64,000 bases of DNA from a virus: positions 32,001 through 96,000 of the IMG/VR virus record IMGVR_UViG_3300042934_000426. One strand, written 5' to 3'. The position numbers were made by a program, and so were the translations under genes. How positions within the stretch are numbered: the first letter of the stretch is position 1; each line of letters starts with the position of its first letter. Of this stretch, positions 26,805 to 57,376 are shown one piece after another. Under the pieces are notes generated by a model. That model was given only the letters and a program-made list of their open reading frames with translations, did no database searches and had not been told where the DNA came from.

Positions 26805-26998
26805 AAAAAATTTTGGGAAATCGCCTATTACGTATCAACTCGTACGTAATACTCAATGACACACGCTATAGTGTCTATCTGAAAAATTTTTTATTTTTCT
26901 CTCCGCTGATAAAAAATAAAAAAATAAATTTTTGAAAATCAAAACCCTTGTGACACCACTACTACGTACCAACTCGTACGTAATAGAAGGTTTCCCAT
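26805..26998 (+). repeat. element A: paired 9-8-9 palindromic sites around an AT-rich core (inverted copy at 57183-57376)
   Basis: TATTACGTA-TCAACTCG-TACGTAATA at 26826-26851 and TACTACGTA-CCAACTCG-TACGTAATA at 26960-26985. Confidence 0.9.
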
Positions 26999-27114
26999 TT
27001 CATTTTTGACTTATTAGGTGTTTTTTCTCTTATTTTGTGAATGTTTTCACTTAACAAATAAGGAAATTTTAGGCTATTATTTTCCTAAAATTCCCATCAT
27101 ATACCCCCTAGGGA

Positions 27115-27816
27115 TTACTGTTCGAATACTTCAGCTTGTGACTTCGGAATCCATCTTTCGAATTTTTGATTATTCAGTTTCTTTACAAACTGTTGGCGCA
27201 CCTTCTTTCGTTCTGCCTTCGACATACCTAAGACACCCGCTGGGTCATAGGGAATACCTAACCTATCCGCACACGTCGCACCGAAGCCTGTAACCATGCT
27301 AGCGGGCTCAGTGAGTTGCTTCGAACAACGAGCACAAAAGGTCATATCGGTTAGCATATCTGCATAGCCTTCGACTAACCAGGCTTTTGCGGATTCCGCT
27401 TTGACCTTCCCTGTAATGATACGGCTGTCAATTCCTAGGCTCTTCATAAGGAACGGCTTGATTTTAAGTGTGATGGTCGGGTAGTTACCAGCTTCGGAAG
27501 CCTTCTTCTTTTCTTCGTTTTGCTTCGTCCATTCTTTTTCACGTTCCATACACTTGCGAACCGCATTAGCCATGTTATCTGTGAATACAGCGCCTTCGTC
27601 ATGCTTTGCTTTCATATCCAATAGAAATTGAAACGGTTTTGTTTTCTTCGAAGCTTCTGTTAAGAATGTTCCGAATTCTTCGATTTGTTTTTGGTACGCT
27701 CCATTTAACTTCGCTTTTTCCATATCCTTCGTATAAGCGTCTGTAAGTGCCTTATCTGCCTTTGTAACCTTTTTCGCTACTTCTTCCTTATAAGTTCTTT
27801 TCGCCTTCAATACCAT
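27115..27816 (-). CDS. protein with DUF6011-like zinc finger
   Basis: CARCSKQLTEPAS...GFGATCA; start ATG 27816 after AGGAGCTGG. Confidence 0.6.
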   Translation of the reverse strand: MVLKAKRTYKEEVAKKVTKADKALTDAYTKDMEKAKLNGAYQKQIEEFGTFLTEASKKTKPFQFLLDMKAKHDEGAVFTDNMANAVRKCMEREKEWTKQNEEKKKASEAGNYPTITLKIKPFLMKSLGIDSRIITGKVKAESAKAWLVEGYADMLTDMTFCARCSKQLTEPASMVTGFGATCADRLGIPYDPAGVLGMSKAERKKVRQQFVKKLNNQKFERWIPKSQAEVFEQ

Positions 27817-27821
27817 GCTTC

Positions 27822-27907
27822 CCAGCTCCTTAAAATGGTTTTGTTTTAGGGGAGCTTTAAGGGCTCCCCTCATACTTAACATACATACGTCTTTTGTTTT
27901 GCTCTAC
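27822..27907 (-). promoter_or_regulatory. promoter-hairpin-RBS cassette, copy 3
   Basis: GTAGA-N13-CGTATGTATGTTAAG, GGGGAGC/GCTCCCC hairpin, AGGAGCTGG. Confidence 0.75.
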
Positions 27908-27910
27908 AGC

Positions 27911-28459
27911 TTAGAAGAAGAAGATTCCCAGGTCTTCTCTCCAATACGTGTCGTCCTGGTATGGTGTGAACATTCCTACGGCACGCTCTTTCGCTTCGAT
28001 ACCGCCATTCCACCATAGAATCGTTTGGAAGCCTTTGTACGTTCCCGAAGCGTGTAACATATCCTCTGCCGTGCGACTTAGTGTGCGGACATTCGCTTCA
28101 GCGTCTTCAGTCTTCGTGATTCCGAAGAATGGTTTGTAGTCCATATTGACCAGGTATAAGAAGTAGTCCATAGCGATAGCGTTGTACTGTGCTTTGTGCA
28201 TAAGAGCGATTCGTTGAATATCCATAGTCTTATTCTTTTTACGCTTGTTGTGACCCAGCTCGCTCATTTCACTTCTGATTTCTTGATACAGGTTGTGATT
28301 CTCTTCGATTTGACGCTTGATACGTGTTTCGAATGTTACGACGTTTCCAAAAGCTTCGGTTGTTTCTTGGCGAATCATATCCAGCACTTCGAATGAATGA
28401 ATCCCGTGATTGTTGTTTTGTGTGTCCAGGTTTTTGTAACGTAATGATGTTCTTGTCAT
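27911..28459 (-). CDS. hypothetical protein
   Basis: ORF with RBS. Confidence 0.6.
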   Translation of the reverse strand: MTRTSLRYKNLDTQNNNHGIHSFEVLDMIRQETTEAFGNVVTFETRIKRQIEENHNLYQEIRSEMSELGHNKRKKNKTMDIQRIALMHKAQYNAIAMDYFLYLVNMDYKPFFGITKTEDAEANVRTLSRTAEDMLHASGTYKGFQTILWWNGGIEAKERAVGMFTPYQDDTYWREDLGIFFF

Positions 28460-28464
28460 TTTAT

Positions 28465-28543
28465 CCAGCTCCTAGTTTTTATTTTGGGGAGCTTCGGAAG
28501 CTCCCTCATACTTACCATACATACGGCTTTTATTTTCCTCTAC
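28465..28543 (-). promoter_or_regulatory. promoter-hairpin-RBS cassette, copy 4
   Basis: GTAGA-N13-CGTATGTATGGTAAG, GGGAGCTT/AAGCTCCC hairpin, AGGAGCTGG. Confidence 0.75.
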
Positions 28544-28557
28544 GGTGCTTCGGAAGC

Positions 28558-28890
28558 CTATAAAGTCTTCACGTAGTCTAATCCATAATTGTATACAGTT
28601 ATAAGTCCATTTGTGCGTTTTTGTACCTTCACCATGATACGTTCATTGGTTACATGGATATTGAATAGGTAGCAATGGCTCTTTACGTAAGTTGTAGCAT
28701 AAGCAACGGAAATAATAAGCGTATCGTCTTTCTTTTCCTTTGTAGCCGTACCGTCAACTAAGAAATCGAGTACCGATTGAATCATTTGTTTTACTTCTTC
28801 CTTCGACTGAATCATTTTCCCTACAAATACCTTAATGAATAAGTCGTTTGCCATTTTCATAAAGTGTTTTTCTGTTATTGCTTTCATCAT
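28558..28890 (-). CDS. hypothetical protein
   Basis: ORF; start reassigned to ATG 28890 after RBS. Confidence 0.55.
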   Translation of the reverse strand: MMKAITEKHFMKMANDLFIKVFVGKMIQSKEEVKQMIQSVLDFLVDGTATKEKKDDTLIISVAYATTYVKSHCYLFNIHVTNERIMVKVQKRTNGLITVYNYGLDYVKTL

Positions 28891-28892
28891 AA

Positions 28893-28963
28893 CCAGCTCC
28901 TTTTTTGTTTTAGGGGCTTTCCCCCTCATTATTACCATACATACGTCTTTTATTTTATTCTAC
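28893..28963 (-). promoter_or_regulatory. promoter-hairpin-RBS cassette, copy 5
   Basis: GTAGA-N13-CGTATGTATGGTAAT, GGGG/CCCC hairpin, AGGAGCTGG. Confidence 0.75.
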
Positions 28964-28999
28964 GCCCTTCGGAAGTGTATTATCCACGTCAATAAATAG

Positions 29000-29035
29000 A
29001 AAAAGACCCATGCCTTCAGGGGTGGCATGGGTCTT
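29000..29035 (-). terminator. rho-independent terminator after HU
   Basis: AAGACCCATGCC/GGCATGGGTCTT stem plus T-run. Confidence 0.75.
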
Positions 29036-29066
29036 ACAGGGGTATTCGGGTTAGGTTAAGTATAGC

Positions 29067-29420
29067 TTACTTTAACGCGTCTTTCAATGCCTTACCAGGT
29101 TTGAACGCTGGATATTTACCACCAGCAATTTCAAGTTCTTCGCCTGTTTGTGGATTGCGTCCCTTTCTTGCTTGACGCTCACGCACTTCGTACACGCCAT
29201 GACCTATGTAGCGTACTTTATCACCATTTTGAAGAGCACCTAAGATAAGGGACTTCTCAGCGTCTAAGATTTTACCGATAACGCCCTGAGATACTTCGAC
29301 AGGGTGGTCACCCGCTTTTAGTTCTTCCTGAATGGCTTTGACCATATCCTCTTTACCGAAAATCGTTCCTTTTGTTTCGACTACTTCTACAGGTGCTTCT
29401 ACAGCTTTTTTCTTTGCCAT
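29067..29420 (-). CDS. HU/TF1-like histone-like DNA-binding protein
   Basis: [44 protein letters not shown]. Confidence 0.9.
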
Positions 29421-29486
29421 GATTCTTTATCTCCTTTGGGTCTATGCCCATATTGAATTCGGTAGCTCACCAGCTCCGTTAAGGCG

Positions 29487-29516
29487 ACTATATCACTCTC
29501 GGATAAGCTTCGTCAA
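29487..29516 (-). promoter_or_regulatory. sigmaA-type promoter for HU
   Basis: TTGACG-18 bp-TATAGT with extended TG. Confidence 0.55.
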
Positions 29517-29519
29517 TAG

Positions 29520-29563
29520 AAAAAGCTCCCGAAGCGTATTGGTGGGCTCTTCGGGAGCTTTTT
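29520..29563. terminator. terminator ending the late/lysis operon
   Basis: AAAAAGCTCCCGAAG/CTTCGGGAGCTTTTT inverted repeat. Confidence 0.8.
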
Positions 29564-29743
29564 CTATTTCTTTTCCTTTTTCGGTTTCATGAAAATACCC
29601 GCAATCGCTATACCCGCTAATGTAAGGTCAGCTATAGCGTTGGTTAATTCCCCAGGTACTTCGTAGCCTGTAGCATGCTTTACTACGACGGCAAGTGCGG
29701 ATATCACAGGAATGAGTAACGCTTTATTGAATGTATGCTTCAT
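29564..29743 (-). CDS. putative holin (59 aa, 2 TM segments, basic C-terminus)
   Basis: Hand-translated MKHTFNKALLIPVISALAVVV...LAGIAIAGIFMKPKKEKK; ATGA-coupled to the endolysin. Confidence 0.7.
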   Translation of the reverse strand: MKHTFNKALLIPVISALAVVVKHATGYEVPGELTNAIADLTLAGIAIAGIFMKPKKEKK

Positions 29744-30498
29744 AGGTTTCGACGCTCCTTTATGACAATAGGTTTATAGCCTTTCGCCTTCAATTCGTCC
29801 TGAAGTCTTTTTGCGTTGTCTTCGTTTTCGTATGCCCCTACTTGAACAAGGAAAACGTACCCTTCCGAAGTGGGCTTTGTAGGTGAAGGTGTCGGCTTCG
29901 GAACGTAGGTCTTCCCAAAAATCTCACATATTGCCTTCGCCAGCTCCACCGCGCACTCACGACGGTACTCGTCCGATAGAAGCCTCTTCACGTCGTCTTG
30001 GTTGTCCATAAAGCCCAGCTCGACAAGAATCGAAACAGGCTTGACGTTCTTTATCATGTAAAGCCATGCCCCAGGTTTTAAACCTCTATCCTTCATTTTA
30101 GTTCCTTGCATAACGTGATGATGAACCACTTGCGCTACCTTTTTCGATAGAGCGGAAGTTTCATAGTAAAGCGTTTCGATACCGCCCGCCTTATCGTTTA
30201 AGATTCCGTCGAAGGCGTTGGCATGGATTTCTACGTGAAGGTGTGCCCCTGATTCATTCACACGCTTCGCACGGGTTTCTAGTGGTACATCTATCTTGTC
30301 GTGGTCAACATCTACATGCTTAATCCCACAACGCTTCAGTTCTTCAGCTAAGTAGTCTTGGACGGCTTCGTTGAACTCTTTTTCTTTCATACGCTGACCA
30401 TTTCGCTGTGGTAGTGGTGGCGTTTCTTTTCCGTTGGTATCGTATCCATGCCCCGCTGAAGACGATACGATTGGTTCAGACACCTGAATAAGTGCCAT
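29740..30498 (-). CDS. endolysin: N-acetylmuramoyl-L-alanine amidase (Amidase_3) with SPOR domain
   Basis: SAGHG, EKEFN, EIHANA, LVELGFMDN; C-terminal VQVGAY..NAKRL; start ATG 30498. Confidence 0.9.
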   Translation of the reverse strand: MALIQVSEPIVSSSAGHGYDTNGKETPPLPQRNGQRMKEKEFNEAVQDYLAEELKRCGIKHVDVDHDKIDVPLETRAKRVNESGAHLHVEIHANAFDGILNDKAGGIETLYYETSALSKKVAQVVHHHVMQGTKMKDRGLKPGAWLYMIKNVKPVSILVELGFMDNQDDVKRLLSDEYRRECAVELAKAICEIFGKTYVPKPTPSPTKPTSEGYVFLVQVGAYENEDNAKRLQDELKAKGYKPIVIKERRNL

Positions 30499-30511
30499 AT
30501 AGGTTGTCCCC

Positions 30512-30814
30512 CTATGCGATAATTTTCTTATGGATTTCACTTACTTTATCATTCGTATCTTTTGCCGTGTCGACACCCTTCCGAAGCGTTTCCATAATTT
30601 CCTTTTGGAATTCGATTTCCCGCTCGGCTTGCTTGGCAAAAACGTCTGACAAACTATTAAAAGCGTCCGTGTTCTTGTTCAGCGAATCGGTGCTGTTTGC
30701 CCATTGTGTCATCACTAGCCTAAAGGCTTGGTAGCCGAAGTAGATAACCGCAATCGCGATTCCTATGCCCCCCAGGTCTTTTGCTAGCTTGAACCACTCG
30801 AAATCAATCGTCAT
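30512..30814 (-). CDS. holin-like protein (one TM plus coiled coil, BhlA-like)
   Basis: N-terminal TM helix, directly upstream of the endolysin. Confidence 0.6.
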   Translation of the reverse strand: MTIDFEWFKLAKDLGGIGIAIAVIYFGYQAFRLVMTQWANSTDSLNKNTDAFNSLSDVFAKQAEREIEFQKEIMETLRKGVDTAKDTNDKVSEIHKKIIA

Positions 30815-30860
30815 ACCCCCTGACCCCTTCCTTCCAAAATTCCAGCCCTGATTACTTATT

Positions 30861-31370
30861 CTATTTTACCACCTGGTAACCATTTGAAATAGAGCTAACC
30901 TTCCGAAGGTTATAAACTTGGATAAGTTCATGAGGGTACACGTCCCCTACACCTATTTGTAGCAACCGCTTCACGCCTACTACGTAAAAAATGTAGTCGA
31001 CCACTTCGGAACAATACAATTTGTTTTTCTCTTCGATAAGCGTACGATTGGACTTCCACCAGCTTCGAAGTATTAAACCGACCATTTCTAGGTAGTCGTA
31101 AGCCTTTCCTTCCTGTGTGTAGGCTAGAAGCTCGATATGAAACTGTTGCTTACGGGTTAGCTCGGTGCGGTAGACTTCGAACACTTCCGAAGGCTGTATA
31201 CGTCGTATCTTCGTTTTTGTAAACCGCTGGGCTTCGAGCACAAGCGGTGTTCCGTCAATGTCTTCCCCTATGACTAAGGCTACATGGGTGTAAGATGACT
31301 TCGTGATGTAAGCAATAACCTTAGAAATAAGGGAACGTCCCTTGAAAAAAAGTACGTCCCCTGTTTTCAT
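30861..31370 (-). CDS. permuted papain-like NlpC/P60 (YiiX/YebB-like) protein
   Basis: GDVLFF, YTHVAL, G.AYD, LYCSEVV. Confidence 0.8.
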   Translation of the reverse strand: MKTGDVLFFKGRSLISKVIAYITKSSYTHVALVIGEDIDGTPLVLEAQRFTKTKIRRIQPSEVFEVYRTELTRKQQFHIELLAYTQEGKAYDYLEMVGLILRSWWKSNRTLIEEKNKLYCSEVVDYIFYVVGVKRLLQIGVGDVYPHELIQVYNLRKVSSISNGYQVVK

Positions 31371-31383
31371 GCTCCTAGCTCCC

Positions 31384-32025: not shown

Positions 32026-32063
32026 TATTTTTACCCTCCTTCAATAGCCCATTAAAATAGTGT

Positions 32064-35000
32064 CTACAAGCTTCCTTCGTAGGCGTACCATTCCCACGTA
32101 ACAACCTGTCCCGCTTGATAGGAGCTAAAGGTAAAACCTGTAGATGTAGTAGAAGCTGTACCATAAGATGTGTAAACGTTACCGCCATTATGGTACCAAT
32201 CATAACAGTTCATAGCGTCTTCTCTTGCTATTTGACCTGCGTCACTATTCTTGTACCATGAGCCAACGATTGTTCTTCTAAATAATAAACTGGAACCTGT
32301 AGTGAATCCCATAAGAAGAACCACAGCGGGCTCAAAAGCTAAGTTGTTTACGGTTTGTACAGTGTCGGGATTAATAAAATAAAAGGCTCCTGACGCTTTC
32401 CGTCCAACGGTTCCTGTGACCCCGAAAATATTGACACCTTTTAGGATATTAAAAGCCTTTAAGTCAGCGTCACCCGCAATCGTAATCGCACTAGAGTAAT
32501 AGCCCGCTGGTTTCGTTTGATTACTAGCCGAAGGGGTAACGGTTCCACCCGCTCCATTATTTGCTATGGTTCCTGATACGACTGCCCCATTGACGAAGGC
32601 TTTTCGCCCTGTAAGGATTTGTGAAGCGCTTGCTGGTGCTGTCGCTTCGGTTGTATCGATGACGTTCGTCGCTCCCGCTACTCCGAAGATATTGACACCC
32701 GCTTTGATGTTGGCGCTCACTAGGTCAGTGTCACCAGCCACCGAACCACCACTGTAGTAACCCGCTGGTATAGAAATAGCGCTTGCTCCTGGTGTAAAGC
32801 TAGGACTTCCTTGGTTCGGCATGGTTCCTGTTGTTTTTGTCCCATTTACCCAGGCAATTCGACCCGTCAAAATCTGTGAATTTGTTGCTGGGGATGTACC
32901 TTCTGTCGTGTCTACTACCTGGGACTTTCCAGCTACCCCAAAGATATCCACGCCCGCTTTAATGTTCGCACTTATGAGGTCAGGGTCACCCGCTATGGAG
33001 CCACCGCTATAGTAGCCCGCTGAAAGAGGGATAGAGCCTATTCCTGGTGTAAAGCTAGGACTTCCTTGGTTCGGCATGGTTCCTGTGACCTTCGCCCCGT
33101 TCACGAAGCCTATTTTACCTGTCAGAATTTGCCCCGCACTCGCTGGCGAAGTCGCTTCGGAAGTATCGACGACGTTCGTCGCTCCCACTACTCCGAAAAT
33201 ATCCACGCCCGCTTTGATGTTGGCACTCACTAAGTCGGTATCTCCGCTGATAGTAATGGCGCTTGAATAGTAGCCCGCTGGCTTCGTTTGGTTAGCCGTT
33301 CCTGGTGTGACCGTTCCACCCGCTCCATTGTTTGCCATGGTGCCTGTGACCTTTGCCCCTTGGACGAAGCCCACTTTTCCTGATAGGACGTCACCAGCCG
33401 TGATTCGATTCGCAACCGTCGCTTCGGCTGTGTCGACCACTTCGGTTTTCCCCGCTACCCCAAAGATATCCACACCCGCTTTGATGTTGGCGCTTATAAG
33501 GTCAGCGTCCCCTACAATAACGCTTGGGTTTCCTAATCCGTAGTAACCGTAAGGAATCGTTATGTCTGTCGCTCCAGGTGTAAAGGTCTTTTTTGTTCCT
33601 ACTAAAGCATAATCAGGCATAGTCCCTACTTTTTTAACCCCATTTACAAACCCTACGTAACCTTCTCGTAAATCTTGAACATCTATAGGTTTAGTCGCGT
33701 CGGAAGTATCGACGACGTTCGTCGCTCCCACTACTCCGAAAATATCCACGCCCGCTTTGATATTCGCGCTTATGAGGTCAGCGTCACCACTAATAGTAAT
33801 AGCGCTTGAATAATAGCCCGCTGGCTTCGTTTGGTTCGCTGTGCTTGGTGTGACCGTGCCACCCGCTCCATTGTTTGCCATGGTTCCCGTGACCTTTGCC
33901 CCTTGGACGAAGCCTACTTTCCCTGTAAGCATATCACCAGCCGTTACACGGTTACCAACGGTCGCTTCGGAAGTGTCTACCACTTCTGTTTTCCCCGCCA
34001 CACCGAAGATATTCACGCCCGCTTTGATGTTGGCTGAAATCAGGTCAGCGTCACCTGAAATGACGCCCGCACCACTATGGTATCCGTCAGGGATTGTAAT
34101 ATTAGCGGTTCCTGGTGTAGCGCCCCATGCCCCTCTATCAGGCATAGTACCTGTGATTTTCGCACCATTTACAAACCCAACTCTTCCCGCTAATACACGC
34201 CCTACCGTAATAGGAGAAGGTACTTCGGTGGTATCCACCACTTCGGTTTTCCCCGCTACCCCAAAAATATCAGCACCCGCTTTGATGTTGGCGCTCACTA
34301 AATCAGCGTCACCCGCTATGGTGATATCCGTAGAGTAATACCCATAGCCTTTTGTTTGGTTCGCTGTACCAGGTGTGACCGTTCCACCAGCTCCACGATT
34401 CGGCATATCTCCGATTAGCTTCACACCATTTACGAAGGCTACTTTATTATTTACGATATGACCTGTTATAGCTGGTGAGGTCGCTTCGGAAGTGTCGACC
34501 ACTTCGGTTTTCCCCGCTACGCCAAAGATATCTACGCCCGCTCGAATATTACCTGTTAGAAGGTCAGCGTCGCCCGCTACGGTACCTGTACCATCGTGGT
34601 AACCCGCTGGTATCGTTTGATTCGCTGTCCCAGGCGTTATGCTCGTTGTAGAAGTTGCCATGGTTCCTGTGACCTTAGCCCCGTTGACGAAGGCAACTTT
34701 AGGCGCTAAAATGTGGCTCGCTCCCGCTGGATTAAGCGCTTCGGAAGTGTCTGATACCGTCGACGTCCCCGCTACACCAAAGATGTTCACGCCCGCTTTG
34801 ATATTGCCTGGTACTAAGTCGGGGTCACCTTCGATGGTAATCGCTCCATCATAAACACCCGCCCCCTTTACGATATTGGCTGTACCTGGTGTGATGGTTT
34901 GAGCCGTTGTTGCTTGCACCGCTAGCGTCCCTGTTACGAGCGCACCATTGACATAAGCTTTCTGCCCGCTTCGGATTTGACCCGCACTTGCTGGGTTTGT

Positions 35001-36470
35001 GCTTACGGACGTGTTTACGACGTTTGTGTCACCCGCTACTCCGAAGATATTAACGCCCGCCTTAATGTTGGCTGTTACGAGGTCTGCGTCTGTTATCTGT
35101 ATGTTAGGTTCACCACCAGGGTAGTAACCTTTTGGTACATGTACAGACACCGATGTATCCGTATTCGTATTTATCCATGTAGTATCTTCATTTACAACGC
35201 CTGTTTTATTAGTCATAGACCCTGTTTGGTCACCTGTATCATTTGAGAATGTTTTTCCGCTCAATACTTCTGCTGGTTGAGCGTTTCCTGACCCCCCTTC
35301 ACCCTGTAAGATAAAATCCGTGCCGTTATAGACCAGCGTATAAACGCTTCCTGTTTTTAAGTTTCCAGCGGATAAAAGACCGCCATTCCCTTTTTTAATC
35401 GTCTTCGCGCCTAAACCGTTCACGTTAACCGTTGCGGAACCTGTATTATCCGCATGAATCTCTAATCGAAGCGATAGTCCTTTGACTAGGGTAGGGGCTG
35501 GCGTTAAAGTAGCGGTATAAGCCGTTCCTGTGCCCGCTGACACGACATAAGGCGTGTGAAGGGTAAAGGTATTCGCGTGGGCGTTTAAGGTCGTTTGAGT
35601 GACTAGTGATTCCCATGCTGTCCATGTACTGTTTGACTTCTTTCGACTATACGTACCTTCGGGGTTCGTACCAATCGCAATTTGTACCCCACCTGTTGCG
35701 GAAGTTTTTATATGAATAATACCGTAGTAATCAGCTAGTATACCTCTTGGACTGTTTGTTAGGTTTGTTCCTTGATAAAAACCTGTTACGTCTAAAGTAT
35801 TTAAGTCTGTGCTACCAATATCTTTCGCCACACTACCCAATCCGAAGCCCTTCGCAAAGTTAATCGCATTAGTTTCAGCGGTACTCGATAAGGCGGTCGC
35901 AATCGCTCTAGCGTCCGCTAGAATGGTTGTATCTGTAAATGTTAGTTTCTGTACCGTAGGTTGACCCCCTACCGCCACAATATCGCACAGCTTTTGGAAG
36001 GTACCTGTCCCTACGTTCGTCTTCGTCAACTGATAGGTCACTTGTAGTCTTCGGGTCGTTTCCTCTCCCATACGAGCGTCTAGCATGGTATTCGGTACGG
36101 TTGTCGAAGTCGCTAAGTCCCCATGCTTCTTAATTCCGTCTGTATGAGCTTTCACGCTCTCGATTTTATTTAAGTAAACAGCGTCCCCACTGGCTACGGC
36201 AAAATCGGTCGAAGTAAGGAGGATAATTTCCCCGTCAATCGATACGTATTCATTCGTGATATTCAGCTTCCCGTTGGCTACGGCATACGTTCCCATGTAC
36301 AGAGGTCTGCTTCCGAAGACTAATTGTAGTAGTCGTGCGGTTCGGAAGTTTTGGATATCCTGAGCTTCGTTGAGCTCGGCTTCGGTTATCTTCGCGTCCG
36401 CACCGAAAATGACCTTCTTAAATTGTGCTTCTTTGTTGAAATAACTATCGACTGTAAAAATAGCTGGCAT
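32064..36470 (-). CDS. long tail fibre with 11 internal repeats
   Basis: Gly/Thr/Ala-rich; repeated GDxDLxxxNIKAGVxIFGVxG; position after the baseplate genes. Confidence 0.85.
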   Translation of the reverse strand: MPAIFTVDSYFNKEAQFKKVIFGADAKITEAELNEAQDIQNFRTARLLQLVFGSRPLYMGTYAVANGKLNITNEYVSIDGEIILLTSTDFAVASGDAVYLNKIESVKAHTDGIKKHGDLATSTTVPNTMLDARMGEETTRRLQVTYQLTKTNVGTGTFQKLCDIVAVGGQPTVQKLTFTDTTILADARAIATALSSTAETNAINFAKGFGLGSVAKDIGSTDLNTLDVTGFYQGTNLTNSPRGILADYYGIIHIKTSATGGVQIAIGTNPEGTYSRKKSNSTWTAWESLVTQTTLNAHANTFTLHTPYVVSAGTGTAYTATLTPAPTLVKGLSLRLEIHADNTGSATVNVNGLGAKTIKKGNGGLLSAGNLKTGSVYTLVYNGTDFILQGEGGSGNAQPAEVLSGKTFSNDTGDQTGSMTNKTGVVNEDTTWINTNTDTSVSVHVPKGYYPGGEPNIQITDADLVTANIKAGVNIFGVAGDTNVVNTSVSTNPASAGQIRSGQKAYVNGALVTGTLAVQATTAQTITPGTANIVKGAGVYDGAITIEGDPDLVPGNIKAGVNIFGVAGTSTVSDTSEALNPAGASHILAPKVAFVNGAKVTGTMATSTTSITPGTANQTIPAGYHDGTGTVAGDADLLTGNIRAGVDIFGVAGKTEVVDTSEATSPAITGHIVNNKVAFVNGVKLIGDMPNRGAGGTVTPGTANQTKGYGYYSTDITIAGDADLVSANIKAGADIFGVAGKTEVVDTTEVPSPITVGRVLAGRVGFVNGAKITGTMPDRGAWGATPGTANITIPDGYHSGAGVISGDADLISANIKAGVNIFGVAGKTEVVDTSEATVGNRVTAGDMLTGKVGFVQGAKVTGTMANNGAGGTVTPSTANQTKPAGYYSSAITISGDADLISANIKAGVDIFGVVGATNVVDTSDATKPIDVQDLREGYVGFVNGVKKVGTMPDYALVGTKKTFTPGATDITIPYGYYGLGNPSVIVGDADLISANIKAGVDIFGVAGKTEVVDTAEATVANRITAGDVLSGKVGFVQGAKVTGTMANNGAGGTVTPGTANQTKPAGYYSSAITISGDTDLVSANIKAGVDIFGVVGATNVVDTSEATSPASAGQILTGKIGFVNGAKVTGTMPNQGSPSFTPGIGSIPLSAGYYSGGSIAGDPDLISANIKAGVDIFGVAGKSQVVDTTEGTSPATNSQILTGRIAWVNGTKTTGTMPNQGSPSFTPGASAISIPAGYYSGGSVAGDTDLVSANIKAGVNIFGVAGATNVIDTTEATAPASASQILTGRKAFVNGAVVSGTIANNGAGGTVTPSASNQTKPAGYYSSAITIAGDADLKAFNILKGVNIFGVTGTVGRKASGAFYFINPDTVQTVNNLAFEPAVVLLMGFTTGSSLLFRRTIVGSWYKNSDAGQIAREDAMNCYDWYHNGGNVYTSYGTASTTSTGFTFSSYQAGQVVTWEWYAYEGSL

Positions 36471-37073: not shown

Positions 37074-37086
37074 TAAAACTACCCCC

Positions 37087-43344: not shown

Positions 43345-46300
43345 CTACCTTCGAGTTGGATTCACTAGTAATTTCTGTTGCTCGTAATCTTTAATCGCTT
43401 GGGAAATGAGCTTCCGAAGTGAACTTTCTGACCGCTCATTTAGGCTTGCTACGTCACCGCCCAGCTTCACATTTACCTGAATCGTCTTCGTCGAAGCGGT
43501 GTTTTCCCATTTACCGACGTCAGAATCACCCGCGCCTTGTAAGGCTTTCATGAGCTCCATTGGGTTTTTGTATGTCCCTTGTTTACTCAGATAACCTAAG
43601 TGTAAGTGAGAACCTGTAGTCGATTCCCCACTACCAGGCTTATTTCTATCCCCACCGATGTTTCCGATGTACTGACCTTGTGCAACTGTCGCGTTTTTGT
43701 TCTTCTTATCGAAGAACTCTTCTAAAATCTTAGGGGCTATCTTCGATAGGTGGCTGTAGAAGTAGGTTTCGCCATTTTCCATTTCGATACCAATTTCCGT
43801 ACCGCCTCCGTTCGTGTTCTTCTTCTTGTCTTTGTCATACTTTCCACCGTCGTCCATCGTAATGAACTTAATCCTACCGCCCGCTAAAGCTTGGATAGAA
43901 TCTCCCTGATTTCCGTCGATGTCTAAGCCCCCATGCGCTTTTCCTGTACGAAAGTTTTCCATAGCTCCGAAGCCCGATGTAATACGGTTCTGCCAGCCTT
44001 TGAAGAATCCGTCAGCGGTGACGCCTGTTGTAGGGATTCCGAAGTTGCTCATATACTTCGTTACGCCATTTACCCAATGCTGGTTTAAGCCTGTCGGGTC
44101 GTTCTTCGCTCCTACAGGAGCATACTTCTTTTGAATCTCTTCAATCGTCGTAAGTCCTTTGTCCGTATAGAGGCGCTTCAAGTTACTTGCCATGGCTTCG
44201 ATACCCTTTTCGATACTTTCGAAGCTCATTAGACCGTTTTTACCCATCATACCGCCTACGTTGTTTTTATTCTTTACCGCATTAGACGTCCCGTTTCCTG
44301 TTTCGTGCATAGCGACCGAAGCAAGAAAAGCGGGGTCAATACCATACTTATTACCCGCGCGCATAAAGGCTAGCCCTTGACCTGATAGCTCCCCTTTTAG
44401 CTGGCTGTCTAGCTGTTTACCTGTGACGCCTGACATCCTAGTGACATCATACCCACTTCCGAAGTTCCCGTTATCAAAAGCACTTCCACCAGGTATAAGC
44501 TCCTTCACAATCTCGATGAAATCGCCCCACATGGTCTTAAAGCCGTCTGCCCATTTCATATGGGTGTCGGTTACTTTGTCGAGCTCGGTTTTCCCATTTT
44601 CCTTGAATTTAATGAGTTGGTCGTTACCATCCCTCTTAAACTCTTCGAAGGTCTTAGCGGTGTGAACTTTTTGGGATTCGGCTTTATCTTCGACTTTCTT
44701 TCCTGAATGGAAAAAGCCTTCGACGCCTTCTTTTAGTCCTAGCCAGTTTTTCGGGTTCAAGTACTTATAGACGTCCTCTTCGTCAACGAAGGGAATAACA
44801 CTGGCTAGCTCTGTAAAGAATCGGTCTGTGCCTATGCCCGCTGTTTTCGGGTCTAGCCCCGCGTTTTTCGCCCACTCTTTATGTTGCTCTTCGGAACCTG
44901 GTTTCATTGCTTCACTAATCGCATAGCCCGTACCTAACGTTAGCGCGGTTGGTAACCCTAAGAATGGGATAATATTCGATAACGTATCTGCGTCCGTGTC
45001 TATGCTCTTCTTTTTCTTTTTCTTAGATTTCGACTTCTTTTTATCTTTGTCACCGATGACCGTTGAATCGTCATCATCGTCCTTGCCTCCACCGCCTAGT
45101 AGCGGTAGTCTTTCTGTTAGGATTGACCCTAGTCCCGCTATTGCGCCAACGGTCGCTAGCTCTTTCCAATGTTCTTTCATAAAATCAAGAATTTCTTTTG
45201 CGGGGTCACCCGAACTTGTAATGGCTTCGAGAACTTCGGTCACGGTTTCTTTTAGCTCCGTTACGACCGTTAAAATCGGCTGACCGATGTTTTCAAGTTG
45301 TTTATCGAAGCGGGAATTCACGTCAAGAATTTTCTGACCTAGCTGACCCATACGCTCCTGATACTTCGCTGTTCCGTCCCCGTTTTCCAGGTCTTTCATG
45401 ACGTCTGCCATTTTATCCTTATCGAAGGCGTTTAAGCCGTCTGTAGCGCTGTATAGGTCGTCTACCTGGCGCTTCGTCGCATTATAGCCACCGTCTTGTA
45501 ACCATCGTTGAAGCATACGCTTCATAAGGTCTTCGTTGCCACCTGATTTTTCCTTTAAGAAGTCAGCCATGGCGGGTAGGTTATCTTCGTTCATTAGTCC
45601 GTCTTCGAAGCTCATTTCTAGGTCGTATAGCCCCATATTTCCGTATTTCTTTGGGTTATGGCGCTGTAGGGCTTGCATGCCCATGTACTTCCAATTATTG
45701 CCTTCGCCAGGGGTATAAATGCCCCCTAGACCACCAATGATGTTCGCTCCTTGCTGACCCGTTAGTTTCATCATGCCTTGCTCCATACCTATTGTATCGA
45801 GCGTCGTTTGATAAGCGAGAATTTGTTTCGCTCCCGTGTCTTTTAACGTCGTATTCATTTGACCTAACAATCCAGCGGACGTTTGCATGACTTCGAGAAT
45901 ACGCGGGGTCATTCCTGACTTCGCTACCGAAGCCCCTATCATATCAGAGAATTCGCTTGGACTTGTGGTACCGCCCAGCTCTTTTACGGCTGATAAGCTC
46001 GAAGCGGTTTCTTGTACGTCTAGCCCATAAGCTCTTCCGAATTTTAAGGCATGTTCGGTTTCGTTCTCACTAAGGGCTCCCGCTTGTCGACTGAAGGAAT
46101 CTTGAAATTGCCAGGATTCTGCGGACGTGTAGCCCATTTTGTCACGTCGACCGATATCCCCCATCGTGTCCCACATACCTTTAGCGGAACCACTGTACTC
46201 GTCCCCTCTTATGCGCTGGGATAAGTCCATCGGGGTTACCTGGGAATCAAACGCTTTTTGGTAGGCTTCCATTGCCATCGACGTAATGCCTGATATTCCA

Positions 46301-47714: not shown

Positions 47715-47734
47715 CAGCTTCGGAACCTCTTACA

Positions 47735-48172: not shown

Positions 48173-48201
48173 GAGTTTATCCCCCTTTTGATTCCGCTAA
48201 A

Positions 48202-49311: not shown

Positions 49312-49329
49312 AATCGGTTTACCCCCTTA

Positions 49330-49566: not shown

Positions 49567-49578
49567 AGCGGTTTCCCC

Positions 49579-51733: not shown

Positions 51734-51756
51734 TGGTTAGTCGCTCCCTTCTCTCT

Positions 51757-52638
51757 TTATAACCCCGTCATCGTGAAGCCACGGTAGACACTTCGGGCTG
51801 ACCCTTTTTTGAAGAAATTATCTACTTCGTCTTGAAGCTGTTTTTGATGTGCTCCGTACGTTGCTGACGTTGCCGAAGCTGTTGTGCTGAAGGATTCGCT
51901 TAGACCGTCTATCGAAGTCGATAGAGAAGCAACCCCCGCTAGTACTGCGTCACCCGCGATACCTAGGGTATCAATAGCGGACATTTTAGCGATTACATTT
52001 CGCACGTCATTAGGCACTTCATGGAGCGGAAAGCCCGCTTCGTAGTCCACATACCACATTTGCGGTAGCTGTGAGTTAATCCGTCCTGTGACGAAGGGAT
52101 AACCCGACTGTGACCCGCCCAACATAGCAAAGAGCGTAGGGTCGCCCGCATAAGGGACTAGGTGAAGCTGACCTTGTTCAGGATAGAGCTTAATCCACTG
52201 TTTAACCGTGTCCGAAGCGGTAAAATCCATAATGACCTGACCATTCGGAAGAACCAATTTTAAGCCGTTTAGCTTCTGTACAGGACGCTCCCGAAGCTGA
52301 AGGAATCCGTATTGCATGTAGTCACGGGCTGAATAGTCATAAGCTGGTTCAGCCTTATCGTAGTCTACTCCCTTCGTAAGTCCACGCTCTTCGGGATTCG
52401 TGACGATTTTCAACGGCTTTAGGAAAACCCCCAGGTGCTTTTCCATTTCGTCGATTGCCCCTAAAAGGAATTGAAGAATATCTTCGTCACTCATAGGAAT
52501 TCCCCGCTCATTGGTTAAGGGTAATCCATAACACCATCGATTTCGTACTTCCGAAGGCGTTGGAAGGTTCGTTGTGGATACAATCGTCTTCGAACCGTCC
52601 GCTTCGGTGACTTCTCGGTAGTAAGGTGTCACTAGCAT
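51757..52638 (-). CDS. head-tail adaptor
   Basis: VDYEAGF, GVASLSTSIDGLSES; position after the capsid. Confidence 0.7.
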   Translation of the reverse strand: MLVTPYYREVTEADGSKTIVSTTNLPTPSEVRNRWCYGLPLTNERGIPMSDEDILQFLLGAIDEMEKHLGVFLKPLKIVTNPEERGLTKGVDYDKAEPAYDYSARDYMQYGFLQLRERPVQKLNGLKLVLPNGQVIMDFTASDTVKQWIKLYPEQGQLHLVPYAGDPTLFAMLGGSQSGYPFVTGRINSQLPQMWYVDYEAGFPLHEVPNDVRNVIAKMSAIDTLGIAGDAVLAGVASLSTSIDGLSESFSTTASATSATYGAHQKQLQDEVDNFFKKGSARSVYRGFTMTGL

Positions 52639-52650
52639 AGAAGCACCCCC

Positions 52651-52923: not shown

Positions 52924-52935
52924 TTACGTCACCCC

Positions 52936-53199
52936 TTAGTTAGCCTTCGGTTTTGCTGGTGCTTTCTTCGGAAGAGCTTTTTTAGGCGCTTCAGGTACTT
53001 CAGGCGCTTCCTCTTCCTTATCATCGTCTTCGGAAGGGTCTGTGTACACCACTTCTTCATATCCTGGGATTTGAAGAAGGACTTCGATAACCTCTTCGTC
53101 TTCGATTTCCGCAATTCCTTCAGCATTAAATTCTACTTCTTTGGTTAATACGACTGTTGTGATAGGGTATTCCCCATACACTTTCTTAATTTGTTTCAT
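52936..53199 (-). CDS. small acidic protein after the capsid gene
   Basis: VEFNAEGIAEI; acidic then Lys-rich tail. Confidence 0.6.
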   Translation of the reverse strand: MKQIKKVYGEYPITTVVLTKEVEFNAEGIAEIEDEEVIEVLLQIPGYEEVVYTDPSEDDDKEEEAPEVPEAPKKALPKKAPAKPKAN

Positions 53200-53279
53200 C
53201 AGCTCTTTTCTCCCTTCGAATAATAAAATTTAAAAAGGGAGGCTAGAATCTAGCCCTAGCCCCCCTTCATGTTCAATTA

Positions 53280-54761
53280 TTAACGGTCTACTGCTTTCAC
53301 TGTTCCGAAGCTAGTTGCCCCATAAGAAGGGTTGAATAGCTCACGGTTTGAGTTGATTCCTAGTTTACCGATGTTCTTGATAACTACGCAACGACGTGGG
53401 TTGTACACTTGAACCATACCGTAAAGTAGAATCATGAAACGCTCTGAAGCGGAAATTCTAGCAAGTGGAAGCTTCATTAATGGAGCTAATTGCTTGAATG
53501 TTAATACGTTTTCAGAATCGTTATCGATTAATACGGCTGTGTCCGTTCCAGGAATATCGAAGTTACGGTCAGCGATTGTTTGCGTTGCACCCGCCTTAGC
53601 GTCAGCCACTTCGAAGGCGAATAATGCTTTCGTAGGGTCTGAAGTTACGCCACGGTACACTTTGTAAGACTTCGCTACAGGGTCGCTTGTTACGCGATTG
53701 ATAAGGATGTCTACACGTTGTCCAGCCGTTACCGCTACTGAGCCTAATGCCACAGGAGCAGATTCCCCAGCACTATTCTTCGCTGATACGAAGTAGAAGT
53801 ATGTGCTAGCTGTATGCTTCGCTGTAGTGTCCGCTACCGCTACTAATTGAGAAGCTGGGAATGTTGGAATTCCTGGTGCTCCTTTTTGAGATTGAGCTTT
53901 CGGTGCGCCTTGTGGCTTCAAGAAAATGTTATTCACGAAGTTAATATTCGCTGTATTAGCTGAATATCCACGAACAGGTGCCCCTAATGTCATGCCGTCT
54001 GTCGAAGGCATAGCAATACGTTGACGAGCATATAATAACTTCGAGAAGTCCTTATGTGCTTGGTTTGTAATGTGAAGGTCTAAGTTCGCATTACCATAGT
54101 TGTCCGCTACGATGGTCGCTACGTCTTCCAACGTGTTTTCATCTAACGTTTCGCCACGCATATCAATAATATGTTGGGTTTCGTAAGGCTTGCCCTTAAC
54201 GAAGTCTGTGATTTGTTTGATTACACCGTCAAACGCTAATGGGTCTACGCTTGAATCAGCGAAGTAAAGCATGCGCTCTAATTGCTGAAGCAACCATAAT
54301 GTACCATTTTGAGATTCACGGGCAACAATGTCACCCACTGTGTTACGCACTAGCGTAGCTGGGTGTGTTACTACTCTCGTAGTCCCTAGGAATTTCACCA
54401 TTTGGGATTGACGAATGTAGTTGCTGTCCTCTTCGTTCGGTAAACCGCCTTCCATGAAGAAAGGAGAAGAATCGCCACCGAAGCTGTCTAATACGTTGAA
54501 TTCTTCAACAGTATTGAACGCTTGTTTTTTGCCGATTGTCTTCCAAAACTTAATGTGTTGCTCGCCAGCCGTTACAATCTTTAAAGTCCCCTCTAAAGAT
54601 TGTGGACGAAGAGCGGACATATCATTGTATGCACCGTTGCCATAAGCTTCTCCGTCTTGCCCTGTACCTAGGGCTTTGTTTAATTCTTCAAGGTTCTGCC
54701 AGTTATCGACACCAAAGCCTTGAACGTCTTCTTGACCACCATTTGGTAAAAAGTTACTCAT
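53280..54761 (-). CDS. major capsid protein
   Basis: ELNKAL, ALRPQSLE, EGGLP, FDG, YFYFVSAKN..ESAP, PLMKLPLA, VIKNI (SPO1/Twort-like MCP). Confidence 0.93.
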   Translation of the reverse strand: MSNFLPNGGQEDVQGFGVDNWQNLEELNKALGTGQDGEAYGNGAYNDMSALRPQSLEGTLKIVTAGEQHIKFWKTIGKKQAFNTVEEFNVLDSFGGDSSPFFMEGGLPNEEDSNYIRQSQMVKFLGTTRVVTHPATLVRNTVGDIVARESQNGTLWLLQQLERMLYFADSSVDPLAFDGVIKQITDFVKGKPYETQHIIDMRGETLDENTLEDVATIVADNYGNANLDLHITNQAHKDFSKLLYARQRIAMPSTDGMTLGAPVRGYSANTANINFVNNIFLKPQGAPKAQSQKGAPGIPTFPASQLVAVADTTAKHTASTYFYFVSAKNSAGESAPVALGSVAVTAGQRVDILINRVTSDPVAKSYKVYRGVTSDPTKALFAFEVADAKAGATQTIADRNFDIPGTDTAVLIDNDSENVLTFKQLAPLMKLPLARISASERFMILLYGMVQVYNPRRCVVIKNIGKLGINSNRELFNPSYGATSFGTVKAVDR

Positions 54762-54790
54762 GCGTGTATACCCCCTTCTTGGATTGTCGG

Positions 54791-56404
54791 CTATAAGCCT
54801 AATTGTTGTCTAAGCGATTCAGGTAATCCTAGGCTCTGAAGCGGTGTGCCAGCTTCGAATCTAGCAATAGCAGAACCAGGGATTTCCCCTTTATCGAAGC
54901 TCTTCATCAGAATATTCCCGATTTGATTTCGATTTAAAGGTTGACCACCTGTTTCGATAGACTTCTGAAGTGTTTGCACTTCACGCCCGCTTACGACGCT
55001 TTTGCGTCCTACGGGACGGTTTAACACTTCGTTAAGTGACTTTTCAAGCGAATCAATGCGTTCCGCTTGCGCTTCGATAACCGCTAAGGACTTTTGCATA
55101 GCTTCACCGAAGGTTGCAAGTGACTTAACAATCGTGTTTTGTTGCTTCGTTACACTTCCCATCGACTTTTCGAATCCTTCTAAATAGAATCCGATTTCGT
55201 CTGTTAAAGAAGTGAGGAAGTCAGACACTTCGAACGCTTGACCGTGTTCTTCCGCTAATGACTTCGAAAGATTCGTGCGAAGGGATTTCTCGACTTCTTC
55301 GTCGTCCTCTCCGTCGCCTTCGTCCCCTTGGTCGTCATCGTCCTGGTCACCTTCGTCACCTTGGTCGTCGTCGTCCTGGTTACCTTCGTCATCGTCCTCA
55401 TTCATGGACTTTTCAAGGTCTTCGTCTTCTTCGTTTTCGAAGTCGTTTTCGTCCTCTTCATTGTCCATTTCAAGAGATTTTTGAAGCTCTTCTAAGTCTG
55501 TGTCTAACAAACTAGAAAGAGTATTCTTCACGTTTTCAGGCATACTAGCACCTCCTATAAATTTTTGAATGGATTTCAATATTGGTAGCTTTTCAGCTAT
55601 ATACGAAGCGAAGTCTTCCGCTTCATCATAATCCAGCCCTTTTGATAACGCACAATGTAAGGCTTCGATTTCTATGTCGTCAGCATAGCTGGTTACGAAT
55701 GATTTCTTTAGTAGCTCCTGTTTAACGAAGCTTCGAAATAGGTTTAACCAATCGTCTTGCGGGTCAGGTGTTTTCACACCGCCTTCGAGCGACTGTGGCG
55801 TGACGGCATGAATGGCTCCTATGTCCATAGACTTGTCCATTTCAGGCATATCAATCGTCAACTCATGGTGTTTAGCGAAGGACTTCGCTAGTTCAGCCCA
55901 TGTAGTTGTATTGACAGGATTCATCGTTAAAACAACGTTCCGAAGGACAGATTTCACAATCTTTCCTGTTTTACGGTCACGCTCTTTGACGTTTCCTTCG
56001 ATTGACCAGCCCATTGTACGCTTCGTATTCGACTTTTGAAGGTCTTCGATAGTCTTTACCGCTTGGCGGGTTAGTTCACGCTGGGCAAACAATCTCCCTT
56101 TTACGTGGATTCCGTTCACCGACTTTTTAATGGTCGGATGTTCGAAGCGTCCTACCTTCACTTCTAAAGGTTCACCGATAAACTGATTCGGGCTATTCCC
56201 ATGCTCGTATTTTATCCAGCCTTTTTCTAAGAAGTAGGAGCAATCCATCCCTTCGGGGCTTATGCTATCATCCTCTTCGTCTGTATCATCCGAAGACATC
56301 ACACCTTGTACGATGTAATCACCGTTTTCATCTACCTCGATAGACTTTTCGATGGGTACATAGAGATTATAGGTATCCGATAAGACGTTAAATGGTTCGC
56401 TCAT
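54791..56404 (-). CDS. prohead protease fused to acidic scaffold
   Basis: VQGVMS..D...D, IKYEH, IGEP, GWSIEG, VLTMNPVN; acidic repeats; many xxKS motifs. Confidence 0.88.
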   Translation of the reverse strand: MSEPFNVLSDTYNLYVPIEKSIEVDENGDYIVQGVMSSDDTDEEDDSISPEGMDCSYFLEKGWIKYEHGNSPNQFIGEPLEVKVGRFEHPTIKKSVNGIHVKGRLFAQRELTRQAVKTIEDLQKSNTKRTMGWSIEGNVKERDRKTGKIVKSVLRNVVLTMNPVNTTTWAELAKSFAKHHELTIDMPEMDKSMDIGAIHAVTPQSLEGGVKTPDPQDDWLNLFRSFVKQELLKKSFVTSYADDIEIEALHCALSKGLDYDEAEDFASYIAEKLPILKSIQKFIGGASMPENVKNTLSSLLDTDLEELQKSLEMDNEEDENDFENEEDEDLEKSMNEDDDEGNQDDDDQGDEGDQDDDDQGDEGDGEDDEEVEKSLRTNLSKSLAEEHGQAFEVSDFLTSLTDEIGFYLEGFEKSMGSVTKQQNTIVKSLATFGEAMQKSLAVIEAQAERIDSLEKSLNEVLNRPVGRKSVVSGREVQTLQKSIETGGQPLNRNQIGNILMKSFDKGEIPGSAIARFEAGTPLQSLGLPESLRQQLGL

Positions 56405-56433
56405 AATTTCACCTCACTTTATGGCTTCATATG

Positions 56434-56521
56434 AAACAAGGACAATCCACAATACACCCCTGGCTAGGTTAGAGCTGGTAGAAACCTTGGCTAGAGTGGT
56501 TATTGCGGACTGTCCTTGTTT
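56434..56521 (-). other. long RNA hairpin in the leader of the protease/capsid operon
   Basis: 21-bp outer stem AAACAAGGACAGUCCGCAAUA/UAUUGUGGAUUGUCCUUGUUU. Confidence 0.7.
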
Positions 56522-56607
56522 GATATGGACTTTGTTGCCCTTTTTTATTCACTTTTGATTACTTTTGTTCAACTACTTTCGAGTTTACCATTAACTTCCG
56601 AAGAGCG

Positions 56608-56823
56608 TCAACGGTCATTTTTCATATTTAAAACGTGCTTCGTCTTCGGGGGAGCTTCAGGCATAGACCCCAACTGTAACGGGACGGCTACCTTCGTTTT
56701 GCACGTTGGGCATAGGGCGTGTGCTTCTCCATTATGGAATAATACCATTCGGCTTCGTAGCTTGACGCCCCCATCAGTGGTAGAATCCATTAGTATCCTA
56801 TTACAACTTGGGCAATGTATCAT
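56608..56823 (-). CDS. zinc-ribbon protein (Mu Com-like)
   Basis: IHCPSCNRIL...CPTCK. Confidence 0.65.
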   Translation of the reverse strand: MIHCPSCNRILMDSTTDGGVKLRSRMVLFHNGEAHALCPTCKTKVAVPLQLGSMPEAPPKTKHVLNMKNDR

Positions 56824-56871
56824 AAAGCTCCCCCTTTCCTGATTATAACAGTAATTTTCTGACTTCGGAAG

Positions 56872-57147
56872 TTAGTTTTTACCGATAGACTTCGCGACCC
56901 TTTCCAGGTGTTCGTTCGTGTAGTTTACCCTTTGACACGATTTTATCAAGTTTTTCCATACTTGTCGAAGCTTTTCTTTTCGCTCGTCCCCGTGTAGACC
57001 AGCGTCGGAAAGCTGGTTTTGGTAGCTTTGTAAGTTGTTGACGAAGTAGGTGTAACAACTTTGAGCTTCGGAAGTGCTTTTTATCTCTTCCTGAAAGGAA
57101 TGTTCGTCGAAAAGAAAGCTCGTATTATTCACTGAATTTTCTGACAT
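56872..57147 (-). CDS. hypothetical protein
   Basis: ORF with RBS AGGGGG. Confidence 0.55.
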   Translation of the reverse strand: MSENSVNNTSFLFDEHSFQEEIKSTSEAQSCYTYFVNNLQSYQNQLSDAGLHGDERKEKLRQVWKNLIKSCQRVNYTNEHLERVAKSIGKN

Positions 57148-57182
57148 AATAAGAATAACCCCCTATATAAGAGATATTTTTC

Positions 57183-57376
57183 ATGGGAAACCTTCTATTA
57201 CGTACGAGTTGGTACGTAGTAATGGTGTCACAGAGGTTTTGATTTTCAAAAATTATTTTTTTATTTTTCTTCACCTGAAGGATAAAAATAAAAAATTTTT
57301 CTCTTAGACTTCGAACGTCTGCATGCCACTATTACGTATCAACTCGTACGTAATAGAGGGTTTCCCAAAATTTTTT
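57183..57376 (-). repeat. element B: inverted copy of element A
   Basis: Reverse complement of 57183-57263 nearly equals 26917-26998; sites at 57196-57221 and 57330-57355. Confidence 0.9.

Follow-up and report, generated by a model that had tools for sequence, protein, structure and literature searches.

What do long, quasi-palindromic DNA elements do when the same paired sites recur in several places in one phage genome? We address this question for a 64,000-nucleotide stretch (the window, with position 1 as its first letter) that corresponds to bases 32001-96000 of the complete 104,950-bp virus record IMGVR_UViG_3300042934_000426 (assembly overlap, 127 bp). Its gene content, with a capsid protein, a head protease, and a tail sheath among the window proteins, indicates a phage of the myovirus type, and the capsid protein is about 37% identical to the capsids of SPO1-like Bacillus phages. 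A soil metagenome, perhaps the source sample itself, was the only sequencing run found to contain DNA of this phage, and no RNA run was found. The window carries two elements of about 190 bp, A (26805-26998) and B (57184-57376), which a first-pass annotation had read either as twin replication origins or as a recombination system able to invert or excise a 30-kb structural module lying between them. Our analysis leads us to favor, with moderate confidence and on the basis of sequence comparisons, the idea that these elements, together with a third copy, C (genome positions 9232-9416, outside the window), may be redundant replication origins that double as control regions.

Element A is a quasi-palindrome in which the outer arm TGGGAAA (26814-26820), a T-core site, an AT-rich center, a GTGACAC box, a C-core site, and the outer arm TTTCCCA (26991-26997) follow one another. 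The T-core site (26826-26851) reads TATTACGTA-TCAACTCG-TACGTAATA and scores 39 bits against a position weight matrix (PWM) made from the sites, while the C-core site (26960-26985) reads TACTACGTA-CCAACTCG-TACGTAATA and has the inner box (26950-26956) beside it; the center (26866-26945) is 80% A+T and self-complementary. Element B is inverted relative to A and is the most perfect palindrome of the three elements. Between its arms TGGGAAA (57184-57190) and TTTCCCA (57361-57367) lie a first site (57196-57221), TATTACGTA-CGAGTTGG-TACGTAGTA, which is the C-core site on the opposite strand, the adjacent inner box GTGTCAC (57225-57231), an AT-rich center (57232-57311), and a second site (57330-57355), TATTACGTA-TCAACTCG-TACGTAATA, which is identical to the first site of A on the same strand but has flanks like those of the C-core end. 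Direct reading confirmed the main structural claims of the first-pass annotation, namely, the two sites of 9-8-9 layout per element with starts 134 bp apart, the spacers that both stay 108 bp long despite three small indels between A and B that cancel out, the outer arms at A and B, the mutual inversion of the CCAACTCG sites, and the identity on one strand of the TCAACTCG 26-mers. The core of B is flipped relative to its flanks, as had been noticed, and yet B can equally be described as an element with two ends of the same type, namely, that of the CCAACTCG end of A, since these ends form a 42-nt terminal inverted repeat at 90% identity. Independently, a repeat search recovered A and B as inverted homologs (92% over 86 nt, with additional arms). 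With C, there are three copies, and "twin" is not the right word for them; C is 74% identical to A, has the same orientation, and has degenerate arms, while both of its 8-bp cores are exact.

These elements are not a peculiarity of one phage. We compared this phage (G000) with four complete relatives (G003, G006, G007, and G008), a set that spans 43 to 57% G+C and in which the proteins shared with the relatives are mostly 40 to 75% identical and those flanking the elements about 40 to 55% identical. Paired sites occur at the same two syntenic junctions in all five complete genomes, and the elements with paired sites in these genomes number 11 in all. In the relatives, the counterpart of A lies upstream of a 441-amino-acid (aa) SprT-like gene that is the first of the early and replication half, and the counterpart of C lies upstream of a 286-aa gene that is followed by a lambda gpA-type large terminase gene in the packaging and late half. 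Absence from close relatives, which had been named as an observation that would refute the first-pass proposal, is not what is seen for A and C. At the position of B, a paired element is also present in the partial relatives L031 and L041, and none is found there in G003, G006, G007, G008, or L030, which suggests that this third position was acquired in a subclade.

While position is conserved, orientation is not. The two cores of an element are divergent in B and in both elements of G003 and of G007, direct in A, C, the first element of G008, L049, and L016, and convergent in the second element of G008, and, as judged against its flanking gene, the A-type element as a whole has opposite orientations in this phage and in G006. 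The free orientation of the cores implies that function does not depend on core polarity. Repeated flipping of palindrome segments is familiar from hairpin-prone DNA, for example, as the small hairpin-associated inversions of plastid DNA. Site-to-site spacing is 133 to 140 bp in G000, G006, G007, and G008 and reaches 148 and 172 bp in G003.

The sites themselves have the properties expected of protein-binding sequences. The window holds four matches to TACGTA-N8-TACGTA against 0.16 expected, a number that none of 100 shuffled sequences reached. Across genomes, the consensus is the near-palindrome ATTnnGTAC(C/G)A-AC-TCGTACnnAAT, with conserved GTA and TAC blocks that are 11 bp apart from center to center and with AT-rich outer arms, and it is the core that is better conserved among the diverged phages while positions in the arms vary. 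The two sides of the "nn" arm positions vary independently, with pairing at the level of chance (P = 0.10 and 0.76; 22 sites), which argues that the symmetry is that of a site for a dimeric protein and not of an obligatory stem. A structured RNA or hairpin promoter was considered and dropped, as the arms of these 22 sites show no stem covariation beyond chance, and an Rfam scan of the window returned no family match. One GTGWCAC box also lies 2 to 6 bp inside one of the paired sites; in the five genomes, 6 of the 37 copies of this box fall in the 20-nt flanks of sites, compared with 0.024 expected (P of about 2e-13), an enrichment that we count in favor of the origin reading, as we do the constant 108-bp spacer of A and B. 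In each genome, the PWM matches only the sites of the elements and one or two operators at promoters, and about 185,000 prokaryotic species genomes contain no copy of the exact 20-nt site pattern. As a separate observation, coding and noncoding DNA alike have many short CTTCGGAAG-type palindromes (for example, at 15643-15671, 43383-43420, and 62321-62349), which are the source of several weaker inverted-repeat pairs in the window.

The DNA between the paired sites is exceptional for its low duplex stability. Among all 80-bp windows of the 105-kb genome, the centers of C, A, and B are the least stable, with ranks 1, 2, and 3, respectively, and element centers rank 1 and 2 in G007, 3 and 4 in G006, 2 in G003, and 3 in G008. 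Across genomes, the region between the sites consists of A/T tracts, often with G-runs, and a central inverted repeat that differs in sequence from one genome to the next. Each of the two window elements folds into a single long hairpin that far exceeds those of shuffled controls (A, z = -5.2; B, z = -12.3). The search for sigma-70-like promoters gave none within the element centers, and this finding and the variable distance to the next promoter both speak against an operator of the simple promoter-proximal kind.

What might bind these sites is suggested by a single copy of the palindrome. At 14720-14749 (minus strand), a GTA-CGAAGTCG-TAC site flanked by AT-rich arms separates a TTGACA-17-TATACT promoter from the ribosome-binding site of a gene for a 125-aa protein (14322-14699, minus strand), a layout that, as read from the sequence, is that of an autoregulatory operator. 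The order of promoter, site, and ribosome-binding site is present in five of six lineages (G000, G006, G003, G007, and L084), the exception being G008, in which the 125-aa gene has no promoter of its own. The structural model of the 125-aa protein (predicted local distance difference test score, pLDDT, 93) has a winged helix between N- and C-terminal helices, and its nearest folds are of the MarR, ArsR, and CodY types, with weak Foldseek E-values against the PDB (best, 0.013) and weak sequence matches to the same class. Its gene lies between those for the primase-MCM helicase and PolA. Because the same palindrome stands between its promoter and its ribosome-binding site and because the gene is part of the replication module, the 125-aa protein is the likely binder of the sites, which makes it a candidate origin-binding protein and repressor. 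Its homologs form 36 clusters, all of them metagenomic, and none was found in 50,697 cultured phage genomes. A second single site (1629-1658, minus strand) is found in the order terminator, TTGACA-17-TACCAT promoter, site, ribosome-binding site, and a small gene that ends at about 1383.

The adjoining helicase gene (15049-18318, minus strand) encodes a 1,089-aa primase-MCM protein (PF00493) with a C-terminal winged helix; the identity of this protein to BcMCM, from Bacillus phage phBC6A51, is 38%. Among cultured phages, phBC6A51 has the closest MCM, and as it has no winged helix-turn-helix gene between MCM and PolA, it offers no cultured model. Domain searches for Rep_3, Phage_rep_O, and Cdc6_C gave nothing above the cutoff, and no Orc1/Cdc6 is encoded. 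Two minor similarities were noted at the C-terminal end of the helicase: a weak, subthreshold match to the domain of lambda O that binds the origin (Phage_rep_O; window 15097-15213, minus strand; 14.5 bits, E = 0.004) and 27% identity over 33 residues to the helix-turn-helix of the 125-aa protein.

Taken together, protein sites that flank the weakest duplex, fixed junctions, an autoregulated gene for the putative binder, and an adjoining helicase gene make up standard origin anatomy, and this is why we favor the origin reading. An unwinding element of exceptionally low duplex stability is present in this phage and ranks high in its four relatives; repeated sites, at which protein is predicted to bind, flank this element and are kept in the relatives; and a winged-helix gene with the site as its operator, a candidate for the cognate initiator gene, stands beside the replication genes, with Rep_3, Phage_rep_O, and Cdc6_C matches below the cutoff. 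We propose that dimers of the early, autoregulated 125-aa winged-helix protein probably bind both near-palindromic sites, that the protein bound on both sides would bend and destabilize the AT-rich center, and that the primase-MCM helicase would be loaded at the center so destabilized. In a bolder form, which we put forward more tentatively, the elements could be the loading places for the MCM-family primase-helicase of a bacterial virus, with the 125-aa winged-helix protein as an initiator in the role of ORC/Cdc6 and with two or three redundant palindromic origins per genome in the manner of herpesviruses; the flips of cores, central loops, and whole elements might then be the record of hairpin or cruciform intermediates that arise when an origin fires.

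The origin half of the first-pass proposal thus remains the best fit, through the least stable centers, the primase-MCM gene in the window, the operator of the winged-helix gene, and synteny, although the evidence for it is circumstantial, and several observations weigh against it. The skew analysis that had been suggested as a check gave noisy GC and AT skews at third codon positions and no clean switch at the elements in the five genomes, and none of these genomes has a DnaA box within 300 bp of an element. The spacing in G003 departs from the range that holds elsewhere. The 125-aa protein was assigned as the putative binder by the autoregulation argument only, and the C-terminal winged helix of the primase-MCM protein could be an alternative reader of the sites or of the GTGWCAC box. 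Two promoters have the site where a repressor would sit, so that whatever binds it must at a minimum be a transcription factor. Finally, every element immediately precedes the first gene of a major transcription unit (early, packaging, or head), a position that fits a transcriptional role equally well.

The best-surviving alternative builds on these last points. It holds that the elements are purely transcriptional control hubs, at which the winged-helix protein on paired sites loops or bends the A-tract DNA and so switches, insulates, or enhances operons (the early operon at A, packaging at C, and head at B) with no start of replication. We consider this unlikely, yet to be taken seriously, because every element lies just ahead of a major operon and the site is operator-like elsewhere. 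In keeping with it, the site takes the classical repressor position at two promoters, each element falls between the end of one long codirectional operon and the start of the next, a terminator precedes B, and a conserved early promoter follows A; a similar palindrome also follows the B-type and C-type elements just ahead of the first late gene. Curved A-tract DNA upstream of promoters is, moreover, common in phages of Gram-positive hosts. The early promoter downstream of A (26746-26774, minus strand) is of the sigma-A type, TTGTAA-17-TATACT with a TG extension, and is kept in the relatives; the distance from the element to it varies from about 29 to 120 nt, however, and whole-element orientation differs among genomes, and both points speak against such a hub. 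The downstream promoters belong to different classes, the loop region has no sigma-70-like promoter of its own, and the gene for the putative binder is in the replication module. Likewise, the lowest duplex stability of the genome and palindromy over the whole element would be superfluous in an upstream regulatory site. The two roles may in any case coexist: the SV40 origin, at the junction of early and late genes, can double as an operator, a precedent by which the origin and regulatory readings are not mutually exclusive.

Two further explanations appear far less probable. In the first, the element would be a mobile palindrome resembling a miniature inverted-repeat transposable element (MITE) that spread within this genome without serving the phage in any way. 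Its intergenic location, its small size of about 190 bp with terminal inverted repeats (in B, those 42 nt at 90%), the extra position in a subclade, and the inversions of whole elements between genomes are what such an element would show. Against this stand the synteny of A and C where proteins are only about 50% identical, with motifs and layout kept while the rest has diverged, the absence of any copy from the prokaryotic species genomes searched, the lack of a transposase among about 80 proteins scanned, the lack of an evident target-site duplication at the ends of A or B, and the use of single sites as promoter operators; all of this makes a MITE very improbable. We give just as little credence to packaging signals (pac- or cos-like) read by the terminase. 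C does lie directly upstream of the operon with the gpA-type large terminase, and in known pac sites, such as those of SPP1 and P1, protein-binding repeats flank a central region. Near-identical elements, however, lie upstream of early genes and of head genes, three cos sites would cut the genome to pieces, the matching operator is at a replication-module gene and not at the terminase gene, and no terminase small subunit was identified among the proteins scanned.

Least probable of all, to the point of being nearly negligible, is that the sites are lox-, FRT-, or dif-type recombinase targets, between which A and B would support inversion or, at the direct sites, excision: the layout of inverted arms around an asymmetric 8-bp core is indeed that of loxP, FRT, and dif and is present at 26826, 26960, 57196, and 57330, and A and B are mutually inverted, but six-frame searches of the complete genome, in which controls matched, found no tyrosine (Phage_integrase, PF00589) or serine (Resolvase, PF00239) recombinase, a host enzyme being possible, an element's two cores are not the same (T in one, C in the other), relatives show divergent, direct, and convergent arrangements of the cores, unlike what a directional crossover site shows, the core and not the arms is best conserved, single copies behave as promoter operators, and genes are co-oriented across the elements in all five complete genomes. 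The first-pass annotation had noted that no recombinase was visible in the window; this extends to the whole genome, and the proposed inversion or excision of the structural module is not supported. At A, contigs of the soil run break at a 30-nt stretch common to A and B and show no inversion or excision joint, though contigs cannot reveal rare isomers, and one of them belongs to a related phage in the same sample. We would caution from this case that arm-spacer-arm palindromes should not be called recombinase sites in annotations of genomes in which there is no recombinase.

The gene order around the elements also bears on the claim that A and B bracket the virion module. Nearly all genes of the window are on the minus strand. 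B is located between the terminator of a 2,302-aa gene and a 91-aa gene, with the head protease gene next; this terminator is an intrinsic-terminator-like, bidirectional hairpin (57379-57407) at which the giant-gene operon ends shortly before transcription would reach B. Genes for the gpA-type terminase and for the giant 2,302-aa and the 1,109-aa, 473-aa, and 606-aa proteins are found past B and share its late direction of transcription. B therefore lies within the late region and is not a bracket of the virion module. The large terminase gene (genome positions 5544-7376, outside the window) is about 2 to 4 kb downstream of C and is split from the head genes by the genes for giant proteins.

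Several features of this neighborhood deserve mention in their own right. Next to B-type and C-type elements, immediately before the first late genes, a palindrome of the form ATACCC(n)ATAGGGGGTAT is found repeatedly (at about 57150-57170 of the window, at 2195-2215 of L031, at 51028 of G006, at 86682, 86975, 88275, and 88842 of G008, and at 51952 and 52314 of G007). It overlaps a G-rich ribosome-binding site in some cases, and a motif search for ATACCC...GGGTAT palindromes matched mostly G-rich ribosome-binding sites; its possible roles are those of a late promoter, of a regulator site, or of a hairpin that sequesters the ribosome-binding site. The early promoters at 26746-26774 and 14754-14781 (both minus strand) are accompanied by TTGT-type repeats about 10 bp apart (TTGTAAATTG TTGTTCATTG TTGTATACT), which also occur in relatives. 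A cassette of about 41 nt, GTAGAG...ACGTATGTATGTTAAGTATGAGGG on the sense strand, is present in four copies (22497-22537, 27867-27907, 28503-28543, and 28923-28963), each just upstream of minus-strand genes, and looks like a noncanonical promoter or leader, perhaps for the phage sigma factor. This 465-aa sigma factor, with sigma-70 regions 2 and 4 (genome positions 28720-30117, outside the window), probably drives middle or late transcription.

Farther from the elements lies the only plus-strand gene block of the phage (genome positions 23766-28336, outside the window), with genes for an 841-aa coupling ATPase similar to VirD4/TraG, a 301-aa Replic_Relax protein, and a membrane protein that resembles SpoIIIAC; G006 and G003 share this block, which is absent from G007 and G008. 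Two HNH-AP2 homing-endonuclease-like genes were noted (window 10997-11515 and genome 21873-22406), one of them directly 3' of the DNA polymerase gene. Within a 1,468-aa gene, a long array of in-frame repeats of about 255 to 261 nt with 60 to 90% identity (window 32463-35108) resembles a repeat-domain tail fiber or decoration protein.

How do these elements compare with known systems? In the Rep-ori systems of Staphylococcus aureus pathogenicity islands (SaPI) and other phage-inducible chromosomal islands (PICI), and in the alpha protein with ori and crr of P4, repeated sites flank an AT-rich melting region, and the primase-helicase, which ends in a winged helix, is supplied by the element itself; in P4, two separate cis regions are required, and the sites in SaPI and P4 origins are short direct repeats in arrays that the helicase itself recognizes. 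The phage elements share with them the repeated sites around an AT-rich region and the self-encoded primase-helicase with a C-terminal winged helix but have two long palindromes each, for which the dedicated 125-aa protein is the likelier reader, and lie tens of kilobases from the helicase gene. As in archaeal oriC, the comparison made in the first-pass annotation, where inverted origin recognition boxes (ORB) flank an unwinding element and Orc1/Cdc6 loads MCM, the helicase is of the MCM family; the phage boxes, in contrast, are unrelated in sequence and not fixed in polarity, there is no Orc1/Cdc6, and the MCM, like BcMCM (PMC2715239), is part of a fusion with a primase.

Initiators of iteron plasmids, such as RepE of F and RepA of pPS10, offer a parallel to the putative dual role of the 125-aa protein, with a winged helix, an inverted-repeat operator, and related sites by an AT-rich region elsewhere, and RepE of the F plasmid autoregulates through an operator between promoter and open reading frame (PMC13028717). 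Iteron plasmids differ in that monomers bind direct-repeat iterons, whereas the origin-type sites of the phage are the same palindromes as the operator, and the phage protein has no Rep_3 domain. Herpes simplex virus type 1 (HSV-1) has three redundant origins, in which inverted boxes for OBP, the origin-binding protein, surround an AT-rich spacer that is bent and destabilized by bound dimers, and oriS and oriL with UL9 resemble the phage arrangement in being several redundant palindromic origins, two of them mutually inverted, in intergenic promoter regions (PMC12543377). The HSV-1 spacer, however, is about 18 to 20 bp long rather than about 108 bp, and its boxes are asymmetric 10-mers read by the C-terminal domain of the helicase itself, whereas each phage box is itself palindromic and is probably read by a separate small winged-helix dimer. 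The HSV-1 helicase belongs to superfamily 2 and that of the phage is a primase-MCM protein; no homology is implied.

If these elements are origins, they would be of a familiar kind in a new form, with palindromes in place of iteron arrays, a separate small initiator candidate beside the primase-MCM helicase, and two or three dispersed copies per genome. Primase-fused MCM-type helicases are widespread among phages and prophages, and the biochemical study of BcMCM (PMC2715239), in which "origin" occurs in the reference list alone, does not address the means by which they locate and open DNA inside bacteria. Given that it has no homolog in the cultured phage genomes searched, the winged-helix protein would represent a new family of initiators or repressors. 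This phage clade provides a compact, testable system for such questions, comprising a defined 26-bp palindrome, a confidently modeled 125-aa candidate binder, a predicted melting region of about 108 bp, and an adjoining helicase gene.

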